Assembly (NCBI RefSeq): GCF_053078305.1
Contig: NZ_CP166879.1
DNA length: 64,000 nucleotides
Reading direction: 5' to 3' (one strand)
Shown: positions 1,110 to 49,348 of the stretch, in pieces
Position numbering within the stretch: the first letter of the stretch is position 1
Layout of the letters: every line of letters begins with the position of its first letter
Position numbers and translations under genes: made by a program
Notes under the pieces: generated by a model
What the model was told of the DNA's origin: nothing
The model's input: the letters and a program-made list of their open reading frames with translations, nothing else
Database searches by the model: none

Positions 1110-1196
1110 AAAAAATAAGCCCGTGTAAGGGAGATTACACAGGCTAAGGAGGTGGTTCCTGGTACAGCTAGCATTTTATGGGTTATGTTTTTCAGC
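1110..1196 (-). ncRNA. cyaR: CyaR (RyeE) Hfq-dependent sRNA
   Basis: Minus-strand sequence GCTGAAAAACATAACCCATAAAATGCTAGCTGTACCAGGAACCACCTCCTTAGCCTGTGTAATCTCCCTTACACGGGCTTATTTTTT matches recalled CyaR including CCUCCU seed and terminal hairpin plus U-run. Confidence 0.8.
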
Positions 1197-1280
1197 GAAA
1201 CGGATGATAACCTTAATAAATGCAGCTGTATGTGATCGGTTTCTAAGAATTTTCCATCCGGGAAAAATAATCGAAATTAA

Positions 1281-15284: not shown

Positions 15285-15425
15285 CCCTCCCGAGGAAGGG
15301 GTCTTAAATAAGGAAAGGGTCATGATGAAGATACTCATCATCGTGGTGCTCTTAGTGATTAGCTACCCAGCATACTAAGACTACCAGGGCGGGGGAAACC
15401 CCGCTCTACCCTCACTCCTGAAAGT
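15285..15425 (-). ncRNA. Sib antisense sRNA (antitoxin) copy 1, boundaries approximate
   Basis: Inferred from Ibs/Sib architecture: antisense RNA covering ibs ORF and 5' UTR; boundaries not determinable by eye. Confidence 0.4.
15322..15378 (+). CDS. ibsB: Ibs-family type I toxin peptide (MMKILIIVVLLVISYPAY), IbsB-like
   Basis: ATGATGAAG...TACTAA with AGGAAAGGG RBS; not in ORF track (under 60 aa). Confidence 0.7.
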   Translation: MMKILIIVVLLVISYPAY

Positions 15426-15612
15426 ATGCCTTCACGTTCAGAATGTCAATCCGCAGGCTTTGCAGTCTGCGATCCTGCCAGCAAATATTCTTTGCGAGAC
15501 GTTACGCAATAATAACACAGGAAACTATTTTATCTACGCGTTAGCGATAGACTGAATTCAGGGCGAAAGGAGGTAAGCCGACGATTTCAGCGGGACGCTG
15601 AAACGGGAAAGC

Positions 15613-15753
15613 CCCTCCCGAGGAAGGGGCCTTAAATAAGGAAAGGGTCATGATGAAGTGGATCATCATCGTGGTGCGCTTAGTCATAAGCTTCCCGGCT
15701 TACTAAGACTACCAGGGCGGGGGAAACCCCGCTCTACCCTCACTCCTGAAAGT
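15613..15753 (-). ncRNA. Sib antisense sRNA copy 2, boundaries approximate
   Basis: As copy 1. Confidence 0.4.
15650..15706 (+). CDS. Ibs-family peptide variant (MMKWIIIVVRLVISFPAY) with Arg inside the hydrophobic core
   Basis: Same repeat position and RBS as copies 1 and 3; charged substitution may impair toxicity. Confidence 0.55.
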   Translation: MMKWIIIVVRLVISFPAY

Positions 15754-15941
15754 ATGCCTTCACGATAAGATTGTCAATCTGCAGGCTTTGCAGTCTGCGA
15801 TCCTGCCAGCAAATATTCTTTGCGAGTCGTTACGCAATAATCATAGAGGGAACTATTTTGTTCACGCGTTAGCGATAGACTGCATTCAGGGCGAAAGGAG
15901 GTAAGCCGACGATTTCAGCGGGACGCTGAAACGGGAAACAC

Positions 15942-16085
15942 TCTCCCGGAGAAGAGGGCTTTTAATAAGGAAAGGGTTATGATGAAGCACGTCATCATAC
16001 TGGTGATACTCTTGGTGATTAGCTTCCAGGCTTACTAAGAACACCAGGGGGAGGGGGAAACCTCTCCCTAACCCTCACTCCTGAA
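15942..16085 (-). ncRNA. Sib antisense sRNA copy 3, boundaries approximate
   Basis: As copy 1. Confidence 0.4.
15979..16038 (+). CDS. ibsA: Ibs-family type I toxin peptide (MMKHVIILVILLVISFQAY), IbsA-like
   Basis: One substitution vs recalled IbsA MMKHVIILVILLVISFPAY. Confidence 0.7.
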   Translation: MMKHVIILVILLVISFQAY

Positions 16086-16258
16086 ATTATGTCACTCCGC
16101 CCTTAGTGTCAATCGACGGCTCTCCGTTCTTGCGAGGCGAATAGCAAAATTTTCTGCGCCGCCGGGCCTAATTCTGAAAGTTTCTTCGTTTGCTCTTATT
16201 TCATTATTGCAATCGGTATGATACCGGACCTCAATAATTCTCTAAGAAAGGATTTCTT

Positions 16259-34605: not shown

Positions 34606-34910
34606 TTATTTTTCCGAAATGCTCGCAGGATAATAACGATAAAGGGTTGAAAGGCCGATATCAAAAATAAGTGCCACCTGTCTTCGGCTGACACCCCCGG
34701 CCAGTAAACGCCCGACCTGCTCGTATTGTTCCTGCGTGAGACGACGGGGTCTGCCGCCGGTTCGTCCCCTTTCACGGGCAGCTGCAAGACCAGCCCGTGT
34801 CCGTTCGACAATCAATTCACGCTCCATTTCTGCCAGCGCACCCATTATGTGAAAAAAGAAGCGCCCCATGGGGGTTGACGTATCAATGTTGTCAGTAAGA
34901 CTACGAAAAT
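34606..34910 (-). pseudogene. gin: gin/pin-family DNA invertase, C-terminal fragment (HTH domain)
   Basis: Encodes FRSLTDNIDTSTPMGRFFFHIMGALAEMERELIVERT...GGRPRRLT...; matches Gin from about residue 90 onward. Confidence 0.8.
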
Positions 34911-34996
34911 GTAAGCGTAAACTGACCGCCGTATGTAGCCATTAAGCCAGTATTGGTAACGTAGGTGCCCACCTTTTCAACTAGTGGACACCTGTT

Positions 34997-35422
34997 ATGG
35001 AACAGAAAATATTATCCTCAGAACCCCGCAGATCATTTTCAAATGAGTTTAAACTTCAAATGGTTAAACTGGCTTCACAACCAGGAGCCTCTGTTGCCCG
35101 TATTGCCCGGGAACACGATATCAATGATAACCTCCTGTTCAAATGGCTCAGGCTCTGGCAGAACGAAGGGCGTATATCGCGGCGTCTTCCGGTAACAACC
35201 TCTTCTGGCGCTGGCGTTGAATTATTACCTGTTGAGATAACGCCTGATGAGCAGAAAGAGCCTGTGGCGGCTCTTACTCCGCTTTTATCCACTCCTTCAC
35301 AAAGCACAGTCAGTGCCAGTTCCTGTAAAGTTGAGTTCCGCCACGGTAACATGACGCTGGAAAATCCTTCACCAGAGCTGCTCACGGTGTTGATCCGTGA
35401 ACTGACCGGGAGGGGACGATGA
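34997..35422 (+). CDS. tnpA: IS66 family accessory protein TnpA (orf1)
   Basis: 141-aa ORF with HTH-like N-terminus. Confidence 0.85.
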   Translation: MEQKILSSEPRRSFSNEFKLQMVKLASQPGASVARIAREHDINDNLLFKWLRLWQNEGRISRRLPVTTSSGAGVELLPVEITPDEQKEPVAALTPLLSTPSQSTVSASSCKVEFRHGNMTLENPSPELLTVLIRELTGRGR

Positions 35423-35769
35423 TCTCGCTCCCATCAGGCACTCGAATCTGGCTGGTTGCCGGCGTTACTGATATGCGTAAATCCTTCAACGGTCTGGGAG
35501 AACAGGTACAACATGTGCTGGATGAGAACCCCTTCTCCGGTCACCTGTTTATCTTTCGCGGCCGACGGGGTGACACGATTAAAATTCTGTGGGCTGATGC
35601 TGATGGTCTGTGCCTGTTCACCAAACGTCTGGAGGAAGGCCAGTTTATCTGGCCTGCGGTGCGTGACGGTAAGGTATCCATTACCCGCTCGCAGCTGGCA
35701 ATGCTCCTCGATAAACTGGACTGGCGTCAGCCCAAAACATCCCGCCTTAATGCACTGACAATGTTGTAA
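35419..35769 (+). CDS. tnpB: IS66 family protein TnpB (orf2)
   Basis: 116-aa ORF MISLPSGTRIWLVAGVTDMRKSFNGL...; 4-bp overlap with orf1. Confidence 0.9.
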   Translation: MISLPSGTRIWLVAGVTDMRKSFNGLGEQVQHVLDENPFSGHLFIFRGRRGDTIKILWADADGLCLFTKRLEEGQFIWPAVRDGKVSITRSQLAMLLDKLDWRQPKTSRLNALTML

Positions 35770-35799
35770 AAATGTCATGGCCGGATTATAAAAACGGTC

Positions 35800-37413
35800 A
35801 TGAGTCGGAAATACCTCATTCGTATCACTGAGCTGGAAAGGCTGCTCTCTGAGCAGGCTGAAGCCCTCCGTCAGAAAGATCAGCAACTGAGTCTGGTTGA
35901 AGAGACGGAGGCCTTCCTGCGCTCTGCACTGGCACGTGCCGAGGAAAAGATCGAAGAGGAGGAGCGGGAAATAGAACATCTGAGGGCCCAGATAGAAAAA
36001 CTGCGCCGGATGTTGTTCGGTACCCGTTCTGAAAAACTGCAGCGTGAGGTTGAACAGGCTGAGGCCCAACTGAAACAACGCGAACAGGAAAGCGATCGTT
36101 ACAGTGGGCGTGAGGATGACCCGCAGGTTCCCCGCCAGTTGCGACAGTCACGTCATCGTCGTCCGTTACCGGCACATCTTCCCCGTGAAATACACCGTCT
36201 GGAGCCTGAAGAAAGTTGTTGCCCGGAGTGTGGCAGTGAGCTGGATTATCTGGGGGAAGTCAGTGCTGAGCAGCTGGAACTGGTGAGTAGCGCCCTGAAA
36301 GTGATCCGCACTGTTCGGGTAAAAAAAGCCTGTACAAAATGTGACTGTATAGTTGAAGCGCCAGCGCCGTCCCGCCCGATAGAGCGCGGCATCGCGGGCT
36401 CCGGATTACTTGCCCGCGTGTTAACGGGAAAATACTGCGAACACCTGCCACTGTATCGTCAGAGTGAAATCTTTGCCCGCCAGGGCATCGAACTGAGCCG
36501 GGCATTACTCTCCAACTGGGTTGACGCATGTTGTCAGTTAATGACTCTGCTGAATGATACCCTGTACCGTTACGTGATGAACACCCGCAAGGTTCACACT
36601 GACGACACACCAGTAAAAGTGCTGGCAGCGGGCAGAAAAAAGGCAAAAACAGGACGCATCTGGACGTATGTCCGGGATGACCGGAATGCGGGCTCATCAG
36701 AGCCACCGGCGGTCTGGTTCGCCTACTCACCAGACAGGCAGGGAAAACATCCGGTACAACACCTTCGTCCCTTCCGGGGTATCCTGCAGGCGGATGCGTT
36801 CAGCGGTTACGATCGGCTGTTCAGTGCAGAACGTGAAGGTGGTGCACTGACAGAAGTTGCGTGCTGGGCCCATGCCCGGCGAAAAATCCACGATGTATAC
36901 ATCAGCAGCAAAAGTGCGACGGCAGAAGAAGCCCTGAAGCGAATCAGTGAACTGTACGCCATCGAGGATGAAATACGGGGATTACCGGAGTCAGAGCGTC
37001 TTGCCGTCAGGCAGCAGCGAAGCAAAGTGTTACTGACGTCACTGCATGAATGGATGGTGGAGAAGAATGGTACGCTGTCGAAAAAATCCAGACTGGGCGA
37101 AGCGTTCAGCTATGTACTGAATCAGTGGGATGCCCTCTGTTATTACAGTGATGACGGTCTGGCGGAGGCGGATAATAATGCTGCGGAAAGAGCGCTTCGT
37201 GCAGTCTGTCTCGGAAAGAAAAACTTTATGTTCTTTGGCAGCGATCACGGCGGCGAGCGTGGAGCACTGTTGTACGGGCTGATCGGCACCTGCCGTCTGA
37301 ACGGTATCGATCCGGAAGCGTATCTGCGCCATATCCTGAGCGTACTGCCAGAATGGCCTTCCAACCGAGTTGATGAACTCCTGCCATGGAACGTAGTACT
37401 CACCAATAAATAA
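35800..37413 (+). CDS. tnpC: IS66 family transposase TnpC (orf3)
   Basis: 537-aa ORF with leucine-zipper N-terminus, CxxC zinc motifs and DDE-type core. Confidence 0.9.
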   Translation: MSRKYLIRITELERLLSEQAEALRQKDQQLSLVEETEAFLRSALARAEEKIEEEEREIEHLRAQIEKLRRMLFGTRSEKLQREVEQAEAQLKQREQESDRYSGREDDPQVPRQLRQSRHRRPLPAHLPREIHRLEPEESCCPECGSELDYLGEVSAEQLELVSSALKVIRTVRVKKACTKCDCIVEAPAPSRPIERGIAGSGLLARVLTGKYCEHLPLYRQSEIFARQGIELSRALLSNWVDACCQLMTLLNDTLYRYVMNTRKVHTDDTPVKVLAAGRKKAKTGRIWTYVRDDRNAGSSEPPAVWFAYSPDRQGKHPVQHLRPFRGILQADAFSGYDRLFSAEREGGALTEVACWAHARRKIHDVYISSKSATAEEALKRISELYAIEDEIRGLPESERLAVRQQRSKVLLTSLHEWMVEKNGTLSKKSRLGEAFSYVLNQWDALCYYSDDGLAEADNNAAERALRAVCLGKKNFMFFGSDHGGERGALLYGLIGTCRLNGIDPEAYLRHILSVLPEWPSNRVDELLPWNVVLTNK

Positions 37414-37443
37414 GCGTCAATACGGTGCTCCGTTGACGCTTAC

Positions 37444-37705
37444 GAAAATTTATCCCCTGTTGCTGTAATTCATCTGTCAGCGCAACAAGGTGGCGCATAC
37501 TGCGCCCCAGCCTGTCCAGTTTCCAGACCATCAGCGTGTCACCGGGTTTTAGTTTCTTCAGTGCCCGCTTCAGTCCCGGCCGCTGCGTTGTTTTTCCGCT
37601 CATTTTATCTTCAAAAATCAGCTCACATCCTGCACATTCCAGCGCATTTCTTTGTAAACCTGTGTTCTGGTCATTTGTTGATACGCGTATATAGCCAATC
37701 AGCAT
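37444..37705 (-). pseudogene. gin: gin/pin-family DNA invertase, N-terminal fragment (catalytic Ser domain)
   Basis: MLIGYIRVSTNDQNTGLQRNALECAGCE...GDTLMVWKLDRLGRSMRHL...GINFR then IS-derived tail; ORF-track 37400..37705. Confidence 0.85.
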
Positions 37706-37759
37706 GTATTTACCTTCCTTAAAAAGAGGTGAAAATGCCTTTTAAAGCAGATATACGAC

Positions 37760-37785
37760 ATACCTGAAACCTCGGTTTACGGGAA
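37760..37785 (-). promoter_or_regulatory. gix-like recombination site (invertase crossover site), gin-proximal
   Basis: Minus-strand TTCCCGTAAACCGAGGTTTCAGGTAT vs recalled Mu gix TTCCTGTAAACCGAGGTTTTGGATAA (21/26). Confidence 0.6.
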
Positions 37786-38154
37786 ACGGTAAACAGGGCT
37801 GCAAATGCCCTGCCATCGAATGGTACAGCCGTAGCGGCAAACAAGCTGTCTGCGGCACGTAAAATTAACGGTGTTGCGTTCGATGGCACAAAGGACATCA
37901 CTATTACATCCGGGATGACCCAGTCTACAGCAGACGGCAGATATGTTCGTAATGTGCAACTTGGTGCTCAGAGCCGCCACTCTCCTGCGGGTAATGAAGT
38001 CACCTGGGATTATAAAACGCCAGCAGGTTGTATGCTTTCTGGTATTCATGTGCAGGATACCGGCTCCCGGTCTGCGGATAATATCGGTGGGGTCTATTAT
38101 CGCCCGGTTCAGATTTATATTAATAATGCCTGGAGAACGGTAAGTTCAGTGTAA
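37768..38154 (+). other. silent alternative tail-fibre C-terminal cassette (Sv'-like), no own start codon
   Basis: Frame open from 37768: NLGLRETVNRAANALPSNGTAVAANKLSAARKINGVAFDGTKDITITSGMTQSTADGRYV..., paralogous to C-terminus of the 38790..39677 fibre. Confidence 0.6.
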
Positions 38155-38188
38155 ACCACAGAAAAGGGTGCTGAATGCACCCTCTGAA

Positions 38189-38710
38189 TTATTCCGGTTT
38201 TTCCGGCCAGGAAATCGCCAGGTAATGTCTCTCGCTGGCAATATCATTAAGGTGCATTTCTTTAAGCTGTCGGATATACGCCATCCAGCGCGTCAGCTTT
38301 AATTTATTTTCATCGCTAATCATGTCCAGTTTTAGTTCTGTTTTCCAGTCATCCACGGTTCCGTTGGCCTCCTGGAGCAGCGATGAACGGCGATTTTCAG
38401 CAACCGTATTCCAGTTTACCGGCACCTTTGATATCAGGCCATCAGAAAACTGCCAGTTACCGTCAATATTCACACCTTCCGGCAGTTGGTCCACTTCAAC
38501 AACAGTAAAACCCGCCGGATATAAAGCAGAGACATCTTCAGCAACAGAGCAGATAATACCCGTTACAGGCGAAATACAGAGTTTGTATTTCTTTGTGAAA
38601 AGCGGGATAGATTCATAAAAATCCCTTCCGTCCTCACTCTGGAAATACTGAACATTCTCACCATAGGGTTTGTGTTCTGGGTAATATCGTTTTACGTTAA
38701 TAAGCTCCAT
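38189..38710 (-). CDS. tail fibre assembly protein (Tfa/U-like), 173 aa from MELINVK
   Basis: ORF-track frame 38189..38821; AAGGTGA RBS before ATG at 38710. Confidence 0.75.
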   Translation of the reverse strand: MELINVKRYYPEHKPYGENVQYFQSEDGRDFYESIPLFTKKYKLCISPVTGIICSVAEDVSALYPAGFTVVEVDQLPEGVNIDGNWQFSDGLISKVPVNWNTVAENRRSSLLQEANGTVDDWKTELKLDMISDENKLKLTRWMAYIRQLKEMHLNDIASERHYLAISWPEKPE

Positions 38711-38789
38711 TATTTCACCTTGTTTTTGTTGAAAAGACAAAATCATCATATATTTATTCAGATAATCTGTTTTTTGAACTACTGCACTT

Positions 38790-39677
38790 TTATGCGCTGG
38801 AAGCTGTTTTCCACGAACCATTTATCAGAAACTGAACAGGTCGATAATATGCGGTTACCGTCGCATTACCATCACCAGCGACATCAAGCCCTGTAAGTAC
38901 GCATCCGTCAGGAACTTCAAAAATATTATATTGCATTCCAATCGTTGACCTTGAACCTCTTCGAATGCTTTGAACATAACGTGAGTCAGCCACAGACTGC
39001 GTCATCCCCGATGTAATATTTATATCCTTCGTTCCGTCGAAAGGAACCCCATTAATATTTACTGGGGTGGCGAGTTTATTCGCTGCCACGGCGGTTCCAC
39101 CCGATGGCAGGGCATCAGCAGCCTTATTTACCGTTTCCCGTAAACCGACGTTATCGATAAAGGTTCCTTTGTCCGGGATATCCGCGCCATTCTGGTCCCT
39201 GCGCAGATAACGCGCATCGCCTTCTCCCTTACTGTAAACATCAAGATTCAGACGAGCCGTCGGTTTATCCGGTACATCGTCAAAATTCCGGGATTTCTCC
39301 AGTGCTCCCACATCAGCAGCAGCCAGGCTGTCTTTTCCTGATAATCCTCCCAGCCCCAGATGACGGCGGGCAGCAGCCTGTGCTTCTGCACCTGCATCCG
39401 CAATCTCCTTAAGGTTGTTTTTCCGGCTGTATGCGTTTGCTGCAATGATTGCCTTAATGGCTGTCACCAGCTGGTTCAGTTTTGCCTTATCCGGCTGAAC
39501 CTTTCCTTCTGTCAGAATGGCAAGCAGCTCTGCCTGCACGATGTTCAGCCAGTCCTGACCGATATAGCTGATCCCTTTGCGTCCGTCACCTTCAGTAAAC
39601 CATTTAACCTGCGTACCCTGAGAGGGGGCCAGTGGTGGCATATCGGTCACACCTGAATTGTTGTCGACAAAATACAT
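38790..39677 (-). CDS. tail fibre protein (S-like; constant N-terminal part plus currently expressed variable C-terminus)
   Basis: 295-aa ORF; C-terminal third is paralogous to the plus-strand cassette; gix-like site inside at the constant/variable junction. Confidence 0.8.
   Translation of the reverse strand: MYFVDNNSGVTDMPPLAPSQGTQVKWFTEGDGRKGISYIGQDWLNIVQAELLAILTEGKVQPDKAKLNQLVTAIKAIIAANAYSRKNNLKEIADAGAEAQAAARRHLGLGGLSGKDSLAAADVGALEKSRNFDDVPDKPTARLNLDVYSKGEGDARYLRRDQNGADIPDKGTFIDNVGLRETVNKAADALPSGGTAVAANKLATPVNINGVPFDGTKDINITSGMTQSVADSRYVQSIRRGSRSTIGMQYNIFEVPDGCVLTGLDVAGDGNATVTAYYRPVQFLINGSWKTASSA
39135..39160 (+). promoter_or_regulatory. gix-like recombination site inside tail-fibre gene
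   Basis: TTCCCGTAAACCGACGTTATCGATAA; inverted relative to site at 37760-37785. Confidence 0.6.
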
Positions 39678-43465: not shown

Positions 43466-44819
43466 TAATCACCTCCACTGAATGGCCTCCGGGAATGAAC
43501 AGCGGATCAACAATACCGTTACGGCGCACAAAACGTTGCCAGCCGGTACTGTTCCCGGTGGCACGGTACAGGGTCACCAGTGCAGGCTCGGTGGTACGTA
43601 CAGTCACTACTGTTGCACCGGATAGCTGAACTCCCCGTGTATTCAGATCCTCTGTCAGTGCCAGTCTGGCATCACGAAGCGTCAGCGCCGTGGCGGTATA
43701 CCCCTGCCCGGACAGTGTCATCACCTGCCGTTCGAGCGCTTCGCTTAAGTCACGGTTAATGCGCTGAAGATCAACTGAACTTTCCAGCCAGACAGGCCAG
43801 GTACGGTGGGCTGCGTCACTGTCCGGCAGGGTTTCCTGACTGAGAACCTGATCCAGCAGTTTTCCCACGGTCTGTGCCTGGGCCACCACGGCAGCACTCT
43901 GCATTACCGCCCGTATCAGACGAATATTCTTTTGTGCTGCCGGTGTCAGACCGATGAGAGTCTGCGGATTATCCTGCTCATCCAGCACGTAACGCAGGGA
44001 AGATAATGTCCTGTACAGTTGCGGCATTCCCTGAGAGACGGCGGATGTCGTCCGGCCGATACTGCCACCGGGCCGGGTATTCAGGCCTCCTGAAGACAGT
44101 GACGGCAGCGATGGCAGGGTGATCAGGGCACTGAAAAGCCCCGCAAAAGATGAGGCCATGCGGGAAGGTGCTGTCAGTAATGCCGTGGCATTCCCTTTCA
44201 GCGCCGTGAACGTGGCAGTAAAGGCACTGATATCCTGTACAATCCCCATGCCGGAAACGGCATTTTCCAGGGCGGACACCTTATCGCTGATGGTTTCGGT
44301 CATTGCCTGGACATCGTGCATTCCGTCAGAAATCACCGTCCAGCCCGCTTCCAGGGTTTCAAAAACCTGCCCGAGCGCGGTGGTACTCTTCTGCTCCAGA
44401 ATGGCGGCCGTGTCCTGTGTGACAGCAGGTGCAGTATCATCACTTACCGGCGTGACATTAATGGTGAACTCAACCACGCCCTGTTCAGCGGCGTTATAAC
44501 GACTTTCAAAGCTGTTTATCAGCACATTTAACGTGCCGTAATCCGGGTGAAGCAGCTCCCCGGCACCGGGAGCACGAAGGGCATCACGCAGACGATTTCG
44601 CTGCGTCTGAACATCATCCCCCATCACAAGTACACTGAACGTAAATTCAGCCAGTTTAGGTCCCAGATCGTCTGCCCCACCGGTTTCCCGTAACGGATAT
44701 TCCCGACGGACAATGTTTCGCCCGCCACGTTCGCGCTGCTCACGCCAGACGAGGAACGGCACACCACGGAACGCACCACGACCGTCACCAGAGGCCATAA
44801 TTCCCTCCGTTCCAGACAT
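43449..44819 (-). CDS. Mu gp43-like (DNA circulation protein family) tail protein
   Basis: 456-aa ORF between tape measure and gp44. Confidence 0.7.
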   Translation of the reverse strand: MSGTEGIMASGDGRGAFRGVPFLVWREQRERGGRNIVRREYPLRETGGADDLGPKLAEFTFSVLVMGDDVQTQRNRLRDALRAPGAGELLHPDYGTLNVLINSFESRYNAAEQGVVEFTINVTPVSDDTAPAVTQDTAAILEQKSTTALGQVFETLEAGWTVISDGMHDVQAMTETISDKVSALENAVSGMGIVQDISAFTATFTALKGNATALLTAPSRMASSFAGLFSALITLPSLPSLSSGGLNTRPGGSIGRTTSAVSQGMPQLYRTLSSLRYVLDEQDNPQTLIGLTPAAQKNIRLIRAVMQSAAVVAQAQTVGKLLDQVLSQETLPDSDAAHRTWPVWLESSVDLQRINRDLSEALERQVMTLSGQGYTATALTLRDARLALTEDLNTRGVQLSGATVVTVRTTEPALVTLYRATGNSTGWQRFVRRNGIVDPLFIPGGHSVEVISEQQG

Positions 44820-46854
44820 TCACATCCAGTCCGTGACCGGACGTGTCATCAATATCAATACTGCGAGCCTGCCACCCTTCCGGGGCAACCAGCTCCACAC
44901 GGGCAGAGGCTTTTTGTACCGCCTGTCCACTGCTTTCATCATCACTGCCCCGTAATTTCTGCCAGGCTTCAGTCAGCCACCCCCCCAGATAGTTACCGAG
45001 ATAGCTGCCCACCGTGGAACCAATGGCAATCCCCACAGGTCCGGCTGCCGCCCCCAGCGCACCACCGGCAATACTGCCTGCAAGAGAGCCGACCGCTTCT
45101 CCCTTGTCTGTGATACTGGCGCTGCCATCCAGCAGAACCGGGGCTGCCATCGCGCCAGCCCACAGGGCACCGCCACCCAGCCGTCCAGCCAGTCCACCGG
45201 CACTGCGGAAAAAGCCGGAGAAACGCCCCAGTCCCATGCGGTTACCGGCAGACGAAAGCAACCCACCGGCGCGCCCCATCATGCGCCCCCAGAACCCTGA
45301 CCCACCAGAAGAGGGCGACGGTGGCACAGGGGACGGTGGCAGGGGAGGCGTGACCGGTCTTCCGCGCCCCGGTCCGCGTTTCCTGCGACCCCGCCCCTGA
45401 CGTCCGCCTGAGGATGTATCGGTCGCGCCGGTGCCGGACAGCCCTCCTGCGGGCCAGTTTGTTACAAGCACTGGCTGAACGGCTGCCGGATTTACCCCGG
45501 TAAGAAAGTTTATAAAGCGCTGGCCGCGTCCTGGCGGCGTTCCCGGTACGGTAGTTTGTGGTTTGCGGAAAGGAGAGGTCAGCACGGCCGCCGCGGATAA
45601 TCCGTACCCCAACAATGCCGCTCCTGGTCGCAGTGCTCCCAGCCCGATTGCGCGGACTACCTTCAGTGCACGGGTGGCGAGATACATGTACAGCAGGTAT
45701 TTCGCGGCGGTCTGTGCCCCCTGACCAATGCGATCCAGCGCATCACCATAGCCCGCATCCCGCAGAGCCTGAAGCGTGTCGCGTACCTTTCTGATCGCCT
45801 GATAAAACCCTGTCACTGCATCACGGGCATACTCAAAGCCCTGGTTCATGGCTGATGCTGTGCTTTCCGCCAGGGAATGGTAACTGCCATCAGATTTGGC
45901 ACTGTCAACCCATGAAAGAAATCCCCTGAGATTACCCTTCAGTTTTTCAAATGGCCCACTGTCCATCACATCCCGGGCAAACTGATCCCAGACGTCACCC
46001 ATCATGGCCGTCAGGCCACTCCAGGAATTCATTGCGTCCTTTTGTGCTCCCCTGGCCTGTTCCGCCAGCGTCTGAAATAACAGGCGAATACTGTCCGGCC
46101 CAAGCAGCCCTTTTTCACCAAGTTTTCTGACCACTTTCTGGTCCACACCCAGACGATCAGCCAGCACGCGGTAGGCATTAATGCCGTAGGTGGCAAGAAT
46201 ATTTGCATCCGCCGCCTGAATACTGCCTCTTGCATACATCTGTTTCAGTTGCAGGGATGCCCCCTGTGCATCGGACAGTGACCAGCCGCCCACGGCACCC
46301 TGATCCTGAAGCATGGTGACAAAATTTCGGGCCTCCCTGTCACTCATACCAAAGCCCAGACTGGACGTATATTCCTGCATGACGCCAGCCAGCCCCCAGG
46401 TGGTTTCCTTCGCATTCTGTATTGCCCACCTGCGGACATCATCCGTTTTCGCCCGATCCCCTTTGTAAAGGGAGTTCAGGCGAATCATATAGGTTTCCAT
46501 CTCCGCTGCCGGGCGAATAAATCCCCGGTTAAAGCCATATACAGCAGCACCACCGGCCAGCATTCCGTAAAGATTGCTGATCCGCCCGATGGTGCCGGTA
46601 ATACTGCCCTGAAGACGGTCAAAATCAGAAGTAACATGGCGGATACTGCCCCGCACCCCGGCCAGCGTGCGCTGCATCCTGCTTCCGAGTACATCTGTTT
46701 CCTGCCCGGCACGGCGGGCAGCATTTCCCAGACCACCCAGCCCCGCCTGGCCGGAGTGTGAGAATGCCCCCAGCTCCTGAGACCACTGGCGGGATTTGGC
46801 TGAGATATTGCCGAGCAAATCAACTATCAGAGATGCTCTGAGATTTCGGGCCAT
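44785..46854 (-). CDS. tail tape measure protein (Mu gp42-like)
   Basis: 689-aa ORF with long helical regions and Gly/Pro-rich low-complexity stretch. Confidence 0.8.
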   Translation of the reverse strand: MARNLRASLIVDLLGNISAKSRQWSQELGAFSHSGQAGLGGLGNAARRAGQETDVLGSRMQRTLAGVRGSIRHVTSDFDRLQGSITGTIGRISNLYGMLAGGAAVYGFNRGFIRPAAEMETYMIRLNSLYKGDRAKTDDVRRWAIQNAKETTWGLAGVMQEYTSSLGFGMSDREARNFVTMLQDQGAVGGWSLSDAQGASLQLKQMYARGSIQAADANILATYGINAYRVLADRLGVDQKVVRKLGEKGLLGPDSIRLLFQTLAEQARGAQKDAMNSWSGLTAMMGDVWDQFARDVMDSGPFEKLKGNLRGFLSWVDSAKSDGSYHSLAESTASAMNQGFEYARDAVTGFYQAIRKVRDTLQALRDAGYGDALDRIGQGAQTAAKYLLYMYLATRALKVVRAIGLGALRPGAALLGYGLSAAAVLTSPFRKPQTTVPGTPPGRGQRFINFLTGVNPAAVQPVLVTNWPAGGLSGTGATDTSSGGRQGRGRRKRGPGRGRPVTPPLPPSPVPPSPSSGGSGFWGRMMGRAGGLLSSAGNRMGLGRFSGFFRSAGGLAGRLGGGALWAGAMAAPVLLDGSASITDKGEAVGSLAGSIAGGALGAAAGPVGIAIGSTVGSYLGNYLGGWLTEAWQKLRGSDDESSGQAVQKASARVELVAPEGWQARSIDIDDTSGHGLDVNVWNGGNYGLW

Positions 46855-46856
46855 AC

Positions 46857-47039
46857 TTACTGCTTCGTTCTGATGATTTTTTCTGTCTGTCGGCAGTGCC
46901 GGTAAAGTTGCGACAGGGGGAGGTTAAGCGCCCATTCCGGGCCGCTTTTTGTCACCATCCCCAGGATAATTGCCGCTTCTTCAATCTGATCCCGACACTG
47001 CGCCTGATCGCCCCCGGTCAGCTGCCAGCTTTCCGGCAA
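46857..47039 (-). CDS. overlapping +1-frame ORF downstream of chaperone, candidate frameshift extension
   Basis: Overlaps 3' end of 46981..47475 in +1 frame; G-run CCGGGGGC in overlap. Confidence 0.3.
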   Translation of the reverse strand: MPESWQLTGGDQAQCRDQIEEAAIILGMVTKSGPEWALNLPLSQLYRHCRQTEKIIRTKQ

Positions 47040-47475
47040 GCGCGGTATCCAGCAGGCTGACCGCTGCCATCAGGCGGGAGAGATCGCGCTCGCTTAACTG
47101 TCCAATCTGACGGGGTGACAACGGACCTTCAATGTCTCCCACTTCGGCAATCTGACGGCGCAGCAGTGCAACACCGCGTAACGACGGAGACGCTATCAGC
47201 ATCGGGCCATTGTTTGTCTCCACCACGCGCTCGGCTTCTGCTTCTGCGTCAATACTGTCTTTCGCTGTCAGTTCCCGGAACGTGACACGATATTCACGGG
47301 TCTCACCAAACGGCAGACCATCAAGCAGATCCACATATCCCTTTGCCAGTTGCTCTGTCAGCCCGGCAGTGCGTGGATCAGCCCCCTCAAGTGCTTCCCG
47401 GATTGCCTCCATCACGGCTGCCTCGGAAACTGCCGTTTTTTTCTTACGTGTGGTCATTTTATTTTTCCTGATCAC
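46981..47475 (-). CDS. tail assembly chaperone (Mu gp41-like)
   Basis: 164-aa acidic ORF between tail tube and tape measure. Confidence 0.6.
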   Translation of the reverse strand: MIRKNKMTTRKKKTAVSEAAVMEAIREALEGADPRTAGLTEQLAKGYVDLLDGLPFGETREYRVTFRELTAKDSIDAEAEAERVVETNNGPMLIASPSLRGVALLRRQIAEVGDIEGPLSPRQIGQLSERDLSRLMAAVSLLDTALAGKLAADRGRSGAVSGSD

Positions 47476-47837
47476 TGAACACGGGTACTGGTGGCGCTGG
47501 CGAACTTCACGGAGATCTCCCCGCCACCGTCAAGCGAGGCCGGTTCACTGCTCCAGGCCTTCGTCATCATGTGGACTTCGCCGGTATCCGCCACAAACTC
47601 GATAGTGACCGCAGTCCAGTTGTTGATTTCATCAGCGGCTGGTGAGCCTTCTCCGCCTGCCGGAAATTTGCAGTCCAGCGTCGCTTCACGTGGTTTCTGG
47701 CGGTAACCATAGACTTTCGCGCCTTTCACCACTTCACGTTCAAAACCTGACGGAGAAAATGTAGCCCCCTCAAGCGTCTCGTATTCCTGACCGTTCACAC
47801 GGATAGTGGCCGTGCCCTGATACTGTTTTCCGCTCAT
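47472..47837 (-). CDS. tail tube protein (Mu gp40-like)
   Basis: 121-aa ORF directly after sheath. Confidence 0.7.
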   Translation of the reverse strand: MSGKQYQGTATIRVNGQEYETLEGATFSPSGFEREVVKGAKVYGYRQKPREATLDCKFPAGGEGSPAADEINNWTAVTIEFVADTGEVHMMTKAWSSEPASLDGGGEISVKFASATSTRVQ

Positions 47838-47845
47838 GCCTTACC

Positions 47846-49348
47846 TCACAAAATGAAACGGATCTGTGCTGCCAGGAAGCGGAACTGGTTAACCAGATCC
47901 GGCGTGCATAACACGTCAAGACGGTTTCGATCTGACGCATTACGCTCCACAAGCAGATTCTTTTTAAAGGTGTCCAGATTTTCGACCAGCCCGAGTTCCA
48001 CCCACTCTTCACCCAGCGAAATTAACTGAAGCTTCATGATCTCCGGTGTCACGATATTCTGACCGGCACGAACGGGCGTCCCGTCATCAGCCAGTTTATG
48101 GCGCGGAAAACGTTGTGTGATAAAAGTACGCAGGGAATAACGCAGCCAGGAGAGGGTGTAGATGGTTTCCACATCCAGATAGCTGGGATCACTTTCGCCG
48201 TACACGTTCTGGCGATACATGGTCACCTGACGTTCGATCTGAACCACATCACCGGCAGCCACACTGACCGTGGCAATCCCTCCCCACAGCAGACTGTTAC
48301 GCTCTTCACGCGTCAGACGATCGGCCGGAGCCGGGGCCATGCGTGACGGAAGCGCCAGCGTCTGAAGCGGACGCGCAGGATCTGCTCCCAGAGAGGGTGC
48401 ACAGGTGGCGCAGACCGCCGCGGCCCAGAGGTAATCCGGTTCAGGGGCTTTGGGAATGGATGTGCAGGTCGCCAGAAAATCATTGCGTTTTGCCCCGAAT
48501 GCCTGCACCTCACCAAACGTGCCGGTATGTGCCAGCCACAGCACGCCGTCAGACATTTTGGCCGGTCCCCAGCGTTTCAGAAGCTCATCACTGATGATTT
48601 TCAGGTTTGCATCATCCTTATAGGGCATGACGACATAGTTGTACTGGCGATCGCCCATACCCGCCACGCTTCGGGTGATATCCGGGTTAGCCGCTTTTTG
48701 TTTCGGATAGGCTATAGCGACCTGTATTCCTTCCGGGGTTGCTTCCCCGTCGTGATAGTTCAGGCGCACATCATGCACGGAGCATTCACCGGTAAACCGG
48801 GCGGTGATCCCCAGAGACCCTTTCAGACCTGCGCCATTATCACCACTTCCTGCACCAGAGGAGGCCGTGAAGGGCGCGTCAGGATCGGCATTGATCAGCG
48901 CGGCCAGCTCGTCGGTCAGTTCTTTGCCTTTCTTACCTTTTGGTGCCGGGAGTGTATAACGTCGCCCCCCCACGCAGGCATAAACAATCCCGTCACGGGT
49001 GACCGTTCCGGTCAGATTCATGGCCGCAGCCGTTGCCTGTCCGGTGCCGTTCCCCTGAGCAATGGCATACAGTTCAGCATCAGGATTGATGGCGATAAAT
49101 TCCGCCACCATCAGGGCAATCATGGAGCCGCGCCCCCAGAGTTCTGTTGCCTGAGACGCACGGGTGATCCTGACCGGAACATCCAGAACACCGGTACCGT
49201 CCACGGCATTCTCTTTCATTCTCGCCTGACCAAACAGCAGTACACACTGACGCTGTGCCGGGGTGCCGGTGACAGCCATGGAGTTATTAAACTCAACCTC
49301 AATCAGCGGTATACGGCGGTCATTACCGATCCCGTCAAAATTAATCAT
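47846..49348 (-). CDS. tail sheath protein (Mu gp39/L-like)
   Basis: 500-aa ORF. Confidence 0.85.
   Translation of the reverse strand: MINFDGIGNDRRIPLIEVEFNNSMAVTGTPAQRQCVLLFGQARMKENAVDGTGVLDVPVRITRASQATELWGRGSMIALMVAEFIAINPDAELYAIAQGNGTGQATAAAMNLTGTVTRDGIVYACVGGRRYTLPAPKGKKGKELTDELAALINADPDAPFTASSGAGSGDNGAGLKGSLGITARFTGECSVHDVRLNYHDGEATPEGIQVAIAYPKQKAANPDITRSVAGMGDRQYNYVVMPYKDDANLKIISDELLKRWGPAKMSDGVLWLAHTGTFGEVQAFGAKRNDFLATCTSIPKAPEPDYLWAAAVCATCAPSLGADPARPLQTLALPSRMAPAPADRLTREERNSLLWGGIATVSVAAGDVVQIERQVTMYRQNVYGESDPSYLDVETIYTLSWLRYSLRTFITQRFPRHKLADDGTPVRAGQNIVTPEIMKLQLISLGEEWVELGLVENLDTFKKNLLVERNASDRNRLDVLCTPDLVNQFRFLAAQIRFIL

Follow-up and report, generated by a model that had tools for sequence, protein, structure and literature searches.

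Just 5' of the tape measure gene of a Mu-like prophage, a short open reading frame overlaps the 3' end of a gene encoding a tail assembly chaperone. The question raised by this locus is whether the short frame is translated at all and, if it is, whether it represents a small gene in its own right or a C-terminal extension of the chaperone obtained by a change of reading frame, which could in turn be reached by slipping one nucleotide forwards or two nucleotides backwards. A preliminary description of this DNA had favoured a programmed frameshift extending the chaperone, a reading that finds support both in the homology with phage Mu and in the conservation of the locus among related phages. 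In the following, the window is the whole stretch of DNA that was analysed, 64,000 nucleotides long, and all coordinates refer to it.

The chaperone gene and the overlapping frame

From ~30300 onwards, the window consists of a Mu-like transposable prophage that continues past the last position (64000). On the minus strand, the genes around the overlap follow the order sheath, tube, chaperone, extension and tape measure, that is, the order of a contractile-tail module. The tail sheath gene (47846..49348, minus strand, 500 aa) matches Pfam Phage_sheath_1/1C/domII and phrog_165, the tail tube gene (47472..47837, minus strand, 121 aa) matches Pfam Tail_tube PF10618 (5.6e-31) and phrog_185, and the tape measure protein gene (44785..46854, minus strand, 689 aa) matches Pfam TMP_3 (1.8e-18) and phrog_973 (1.9e-217). 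Between tube and tape measure lies the gene for the gp41-like tail assembly chaperone (46981..47457, minus strand), whose zero-frame product of 158 aa belongs to the Gp41_Mu family (PF23746, 4.9e-32, 110.7 bits with a cut-off of 27) and to phrog_508, "tail assembly chaperone" (3.4e-48), and falls just below threshold for Pfam Phage_TAC_7 (24.3 bits, cut-off 25). In the list of open reading frames the chaperone begins at a GTG (47475..46981, minus strand), while its start is likely the ATG at 47457, the same as in RefSeq for near-identical prophages, the records of which contain the same 477-nt coding sequence; the exact 158-aa sequence is a member of a 227-member cluster.

The 60-codon ORF that overlaps the chaperone (47039..46857, minus strand, TTG start in the ORF list) had been described as lying in the +1 frame, and both the ORF list and a three-frame translation bear this out: 47475 – 47039 = 436, or 1 mod 3, which places the small ORF in the +1 (or, equivalently, –2) frame with respect to the chaperone. 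The +1 frame is open as far back as 47069 and closes at the TAA codon at 46859..46857, and the two frames are both open over an overlap of 89 nt (46981..47069, minus strand). As to the 3 bp that had been given for the distance to the tape measure gene, this figure is a difference of coordinates, the spacer between TAA and the ATG at 46854 being 2 nt. The G-run reported within the overlap is indeed there (CCGGGGGC, 47017..47010), containing in-frame CGG_GGG_CGA. This slip site (47008..47016, minus strand) is read in frame 0 as CGG (47016-14), GGG (47013-11) and CGA (47010-08), encoding Arg148-Gly149-Arg150, and its core, G_GGG_CGA, spans 47014..47008 on the same strand. From here, the +1/–2 frame provides an extension of 51 codons (GDQAQCRDQIEE...IIRTKQ) followed by TAA (46857..47012, minus strand), and the predicted –2 fused coding sequence, join(47457..47011, 47012..46857), would give a protein of 200 aa, ...AADRG-GDQAQCRDQIEE...TKQ. 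The extension belongs to phrog_12783 (6.9e-39), a PHROGs family of 54 residues with unknown function; searched alone it has no family in Pfam, and the fused protein has none in NCBIfam.

No canonical –1 slippery heptamer of the X_XXY_YYZ type is found in frame on reading the sequence of the overlap. The –1 frame closes after ~19 codons here; it runs 29 nt past the chaperone stop, and from 5 to 146 nt in the relatives, being short, erratic and unconserved.

Conservation of the slip site and of the extension

The comparison with related loci included the annotated phages Mu, D108 and SfMu and phages of Klebsiella, Alteromonadaceae, Pasteurella, Shewanella and Vibrio, to which E. coli prophage variants and two IMG/VR scans were added, for a total of 176 loci. 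[quoted passage not shown] All 114 distinct sequences have the heptanucleotide G_GGG_CGA, unchanged and in frame. For 12 loci the start of the tape measure gene is annotated or could be identified, and here the end of the extension falls between 17 nt past that start, inside the gene, and 14 nt short of it.

The pattern of nucleotide variation in the 42 distinct sequences of the Mu/E. coli lineage is also informative. The 7 nt of G_GGG_CGA have zero column entropy, against 0.9-1.4 bits for the three flanking positions on each side. In the region that precedes the site, the entropy at codon positions 1, 2 and 3 is 0.94, 0.77 and 1.25, respectively, the pattern of frame 0, whereas downstream of the chaperone stop it is 0.61, 0.35 and 1.15, the pattern of the +1 frame; in other words, it is at the site that the coding signature passes from one frame to the other. 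The codon before GGG is mostly CGG, replaced in some lineages by AGG, AAG, TCG or GAG (thus encoding Arg, Lys, Ser or Glu), and it ends in G whatever the amino acid encoded, which argues for selection acting on the nucleotide.

Taken alone, both the ORF and the motif could be due to chance. Many spurious ORFs of 60-300 codons occur in alternative frames within the 5-kb neighbourhood, and the 8-mer GGGGGCGA is found 4 times in the window versus 2.8 expected; a literal search of the literature for GGGGGCGA returned unrelated matches only. Spurious ORFs of similar or greater length nearby and an 8-mer that is not over-represented would agree with an overlap that is simply a chance open frame in GC-rich DNA, without a product. 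The signal rises above chance because the in-frame site and the same-frame extension are conserved together in 174 of the 176 loci: frame, length of 46-52 aa, end point and sequence are all maintained across 42 divergent clusters, and the +1 frame carries a coding signature. The comparative data thus already contradict a chance frame, the probability of which is negligible.

A second in-frame motif, in the sheath gene, serves as a negative control, since it is not preserved where no recoding is at stake. This is GTG_GGG_GGG_CGA, with 7 G (approximately 48962..48973, minus strand), encoding Val-Gly-Gly-Arg. It was considered as a second recoding site and rejected, as its codons vary freely and the shifted frames soon meet a stop: Gly-Gly-Arg is conserved in the sheath genes of the relatives but encoded differently in every one checked (GGT_GGA_CGA, GGG_GGG_CGG, GGC_GGT_CGC), and a –2 slip, leading to the +1 frame, would end after 17 more codons, a –1 slip after 10. 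On these comparisons, the sheath motif looks like a chance occurrence.

Conservation also bears on whether the small ORF might be a gene of its own, expressed from the TTG at 47039 or from an internal ATG as a free peptide of ~33-60 aa, with no recoding involved. A TTG does occur at 47039, D108 and some other genomes carry the annotation of a separate "gene 41.5" or of a hypothetical protein, and PHROGs holds phrog_12783 as a stand-alone family. Nevertheless, none of AGGA, GGAG and GAGG occurs in the 16 nt 5' of the TTG, and the small ORF has neither a start codon nor a Shine-Dalgarno motif that is conserved among the 114 distinct sequences: in 39 of these the +1 frame offers no ATG, GTG or TTG up to and including the slip site, an upstream start with an SD-like core is present in only 3, and the first start codon after the site may fall anywhere from codon 2 to codon 28, or be absent. 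The +1 frame of Mu is open for only 4 codons ahead of GGC, the first codon to be read after the slip, and its first NTG is codon 28 of 51; in D108, gene 41.5 must begin on a CTG. Moreover, the amino-acid conservation of the extension begins exactly at the slip site. Judging from the aligned sequences, a free-standing small gene would not explain the data, and it is to be considered extremely improbable. The preliminary description had named, as findings that would speak against a frameshift, the lack of a slippery site or of a conserved overlapping frame and a functional start belonging to the small ORF; instead, the slippery site is present, the overlapping frame is conserved and a conserved start is missing.

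Proposed mechanism and direction of the shift

In the mechanism proposed here, most ribosomes would read the chaperone gene (47457..46981) to its TGA codon, yielding the 158-aa protein, while a minority would pause with peptidyl-tRNA-Gly on GGG (47013..47011) and the rare, slow Arg codon CGA in the A site. The tRNA would then slip two bases back onto the overlapping GGG (47015..47013), and decoding would restart at GGC (47012..47010), adding a second Gly and proceeding for 51 codons to the TAA at 46859..46857, with the outcome of a 200-aa fusion produced at a fixed low ratio to the 158-aa form. The ribosomal nature of the event, its –2 direction, its efficiency and its role in tail assembly are properties that we infer from Mu and lambda. 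CGA is decoded via an inefficient I:A wobble and it accounts for 7 of the 1472 codons in the tail genes. The first base of this codon is required by neither frame, AGA and GGA being synonymous, and the invariance of the C therefore points to a codon-specific, i.e., ribosomal, signal.

The preliminary description had suggested a search for downstream structure near the site, and no conserved one is found in the Mu/E. coli lineage. Over 131 nt around the site, the predicted folding is no more stable than that of shuffled sequences (z = +0.26), the 60 nt downstream give z = 0.15 in the lineage of the window and 0.25 in Mu, and an alifold of 13 relatives yields a covariation term of –0.14 kcal/mol with 1 compensatory pair. 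Stable hairpins are present 6-60 nt after the site in the distant lineages L092, L011, L013 and L085 (z from –2.7 to –3.8 versus shuffles), where they may act as lineage-specific 3' stimulators. The absence of a conserved downstream structure at the window site fits with the behaviour of the Mu site, of which the 10-mer alone promotes ~14% shift into the –2/+1 frame in a purified system, where –2 and +1 are indistinguishable (bioRxiv 10.1101/2025.10.02.679949).

An Rfam scan over the whole window detects only CyaR and three Sib RNAs, with nothing at the site, and there are no tRNAs in the window. The CyaR/RyeE sRNA gene is at 1113..1198 on the minus strand (RF00112, 100.7 bits), and the three Sib antitoxin RNA genes are arranged in tandem at 15307..16112, also on the minus strand, in the host part (RF00113, 136-147 bits), presumably with ibs toxin ORFs opposite to them.

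The same frame could be entered by a +1 ribosomal shift at the same site, with the peptidyl-tRNA-Gly moving from GGG to the overlapping GGC and the slow CGA in the A site. The product would be a 199-aa fusion, ...ADRG-DQAQCR..., with one Gly fewer than the –2 product (...AADRG-GDQAQCR...). A forward slip would use the same pause codon and, with no upstream re-pairing required, it could equally operate in the relatives with AAG, TCG or GAG before GGG_CGA; in addition, the 2025 reporter assay cannot split –2 from +1, and +1 is said to be generally more frequent (bioRxiv 10.1101/2025.10.02.679949). On the other hand, the Mu product, whose site is identical to that of the window, has been annotated and curated as the –2 form, which contains the additional Gly, and the base before GGG is a G in 114 of 114 distinct sequences, an invariance that a backward slip would account for and a +1 slip would not. 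A forward shift at the window site is, for these reasons, unlikely.

Recoding at the level of transcription is a further alternative, in which the RNA polymerase would slip on the G5 run, adding two G or dropping one, and a fraction of the mRNA would encode the fusion. The slip site is a homopolymer run, and a transcript with two additional G would encode exactly the "–2" protein of Mu. That the run is prone to indels is shown by rare database sequences in which it is one G shorter (locus L055, IMG/VR 2758568005_000002; proteins P0001, P0099, P0100 and P0101), so that chaperone and extension are fused in frame at the DNA level with an RGD or RGE junction; the fused homologues found by the protein-database search were all of this type. 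They are probably homopolymer errors or mutations rather than annotated recoding and, if real mutations, would make the long form only. Five G are, however, few for transcriptional slippage, which in bacteria is known on runs of about 7 or more A/T. Some lineages have four G only (AAG_GGG_CGA, TCG_GGG_CGA), yet CGA is invariant including its first C, and the longer G7 run of the sheath gene is not conserved. The conserved feature is then G_GGG_CGA with its non-G bases and not the length of the run, which is not the mark of transcriptional slippage. The Mu 10-mer also shifts in the reporter assay, although that system includes transcription too. Altogether, slippage of the RNA polymerase appears very improbable.

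The variant slip sites found among the relatives, i.e., AAG_GGG_CGA, TCG_GGG_CGA, GAG_GGG_CGA(_TAG) and AGG_GGG_CGA (in the L036-L045 group, L050, L092/L160/L161 and L012/L069/L087/L174), deserve a separate comment. With AAG, TCG or GAG before GGG, re-pairing after a –2 slip entails a first-position mismatch. It is possible, if rather doubtful, that in these relatives the –2 slip tolerates such a mismatch or that the same frame is reached via +1, the family-wide signal being the 7-mer G_GGG_CGA and not the five-G run. With a +1 shift in these lineages, the conserved site would serve both directions of slippage in the same family of proteins, a matter that concerns the relatives more than the window, whose own site is the canonical one of Mu. 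Programmed –2 frameshifting is rare in nature, and the 114 aligned natural variants reveal its constrained bases, G_GGG_CGA; the minority lineages that have imperfect sites would be informative cases for the mechanism.

The evidence considered so far indicates that the programmed frameshift is genuine and that its direction is most likely –2, not +1. The +1 shift that the preliminary description had considered atypical is thus correct as far as the frame is concerned, while the event is most likely a –2 slip, atypical only in the way documented for Mu.

Annotation, spread and relation to known systems

Of 5426 complete E. coli genomes, 228 contain the prophage region. All four prophage records inspected list the 158-aa "phage tail assembly protein" as the sole RefSeq/PGAP product at this place and treat the following 126 nt as "intergenic". 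An exact look-up in a collection of ~15 billion proteins does not retrieve the predicted 200-aa product, whereas the 158-aa protein is common there. The missing fusion is probably an essential tail-assembly protein and, being unannotated and absent from the collection, it is invisible to calls of prophage completeness or function in O157-type strains. The main value of the present analysis is a correction of the annotation.

The annotated genes of a near-identical prophage in another genome include Com and a DNA methyltransferase at its end, as well as Mor, Gam and genes for lysis, head, tail and baseplate; this copy resides at another chromosomal site, beside a disrupted pgrR. The tail-fibre region of the window (~34900..39150) differs from that of an otherwise 97-99% identical prophage in NZ_AP045172.1, to which the segment 38995..39152 matches in inverted orientation, beside a recombinase gene. 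Judging from these alignments, the difference is probably due to a Gin/G-segment-like invertible host-range segment in the other orientation.

An AlphaFold model of the 200-aa fusion, obtained with 29 reconstructed fusions as input, is confident and has a mean pLDDT of 87.4, with values >92 for residues 31-130, 65-76 near the junction and 84-90 in the helical extension. The best match of the model in BFVD is FS-gp41 of Mu (P0DJY4, E=7e-19). Other predicted viral structures that resemble it are D108 gp41.5, over the extension, and, weakly, various chaperones of tail assembly or of the tape measure, and no meaningful relative is found in the PDB by either sequence profile or Foldseek.

As to function, the shared domain of lambda gpG and gpGT binds the tape measure protein and the extension of gpGT recruits the tube protein, neither of the two being kept in the virion (PMC5009743). 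By analogy, both proteins of the window would coat the tape measure protein via their common N-terminal domain and the less abundant C-terminal extension would bring in the tube protein, a model that is borrowed from a siphovirus while the phage considered here is a Mu-type myovirus.

The genetic arrangement is also like that of lambda gpG/gpGT, in that two proteins with a common N-terminus are encoded just 5' of the tape measure gene. Lambda, however, shifts by –1 through tandem slippage on a heptamer of the X_XXY_YYZ type (G_GGA_AAG), whereas the window employs the +1 frame and has no such heptamer; sequence similarity between the window chaperone and the lambda system was not detected. Another chaperone pair is gpE / gpE+E' of P2, a contractile-tailed phage in which the genes occupy the same genomic position and a –1 shift takes place on a T-rich run. 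P2 gpE and gp41 are grouped in Pfam Phage_TAC_7, "E, or 41 or 14", for which the window protein is just under the cut-off.

Outside bacteria, the arterivirus –2 frameshift requires a protein trans-activator, and nothing of that kind is indicated at the window site. The shifts producing arterivirus nsp2TF and that of Trichomonas vaginalis virus 1 have the –2 direction and reach the same frame as here, but they occur in eukaryotic hosts and on other slippery sequences (PMC5009743). The closest system is that of phage Mu.

Xu, Hendrix and Duda reportedly described in 2004 a programmed –2 frameshift in Mu gp41 / FS-gp41. The GenBank record of Mu (AF083977.1) has a joined CDS, Mu_56, marked as "verified -2 translational frameshift" in a note that cites PMID 15469818, and the gpGT analogue of Mu is stated to be made by a natural –2 frameshift (PMC5009743; PMC3498833; PMC2628397) with an efficiency of ~2.2% (PMC3498833). 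When the Mu –2 product is rebuilt from the sequence, the resulting 188 aa (...QERGGEWL...) match exactly UniProt P0DJY4, "Probable tail assembly protein FS-gp41", and have the same length as GenBank UIW09302.1; the rebuilt Mu +1 product is absent, by exact-sequence look-up, from ~15 billion proteins.

The comparison with Mu gp41, which the preliminary description had recommended, reveals an identical site and a colinear extension. The chaperone aligns to Mu with 49% identity in tblastn, and the window fusion aligns to P0DJY4 with 49% identity (E=4e-56), colinearly and with no gap across the junction. Both proteins belong to the Gp41_Mu family, with the site between the tube and tape measure genes, and share an identical in-frame CGG_GGG_CGA and a +1-frame extension of 51 codons. 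Unlike in Mu, the N-terminus of the window chaperone is ~14 residues longer, the zero-frame tail after the site has 9 codons versus 7, the extension stop is 2 nt from the tape measure ATG versus 14 nt, and the predicted product is unannotated. With a probability of about 0.84, the site serves a –2 slip of the ribosome by which the tail assembly chaperone of this Mu-like prophage in E. coli is recoded, and is orthologous to that of gp41 / FS-gp41 in Mu. The feature is of an already known kind, an unannotated orthologue of a known recoding event rather than a discovery.
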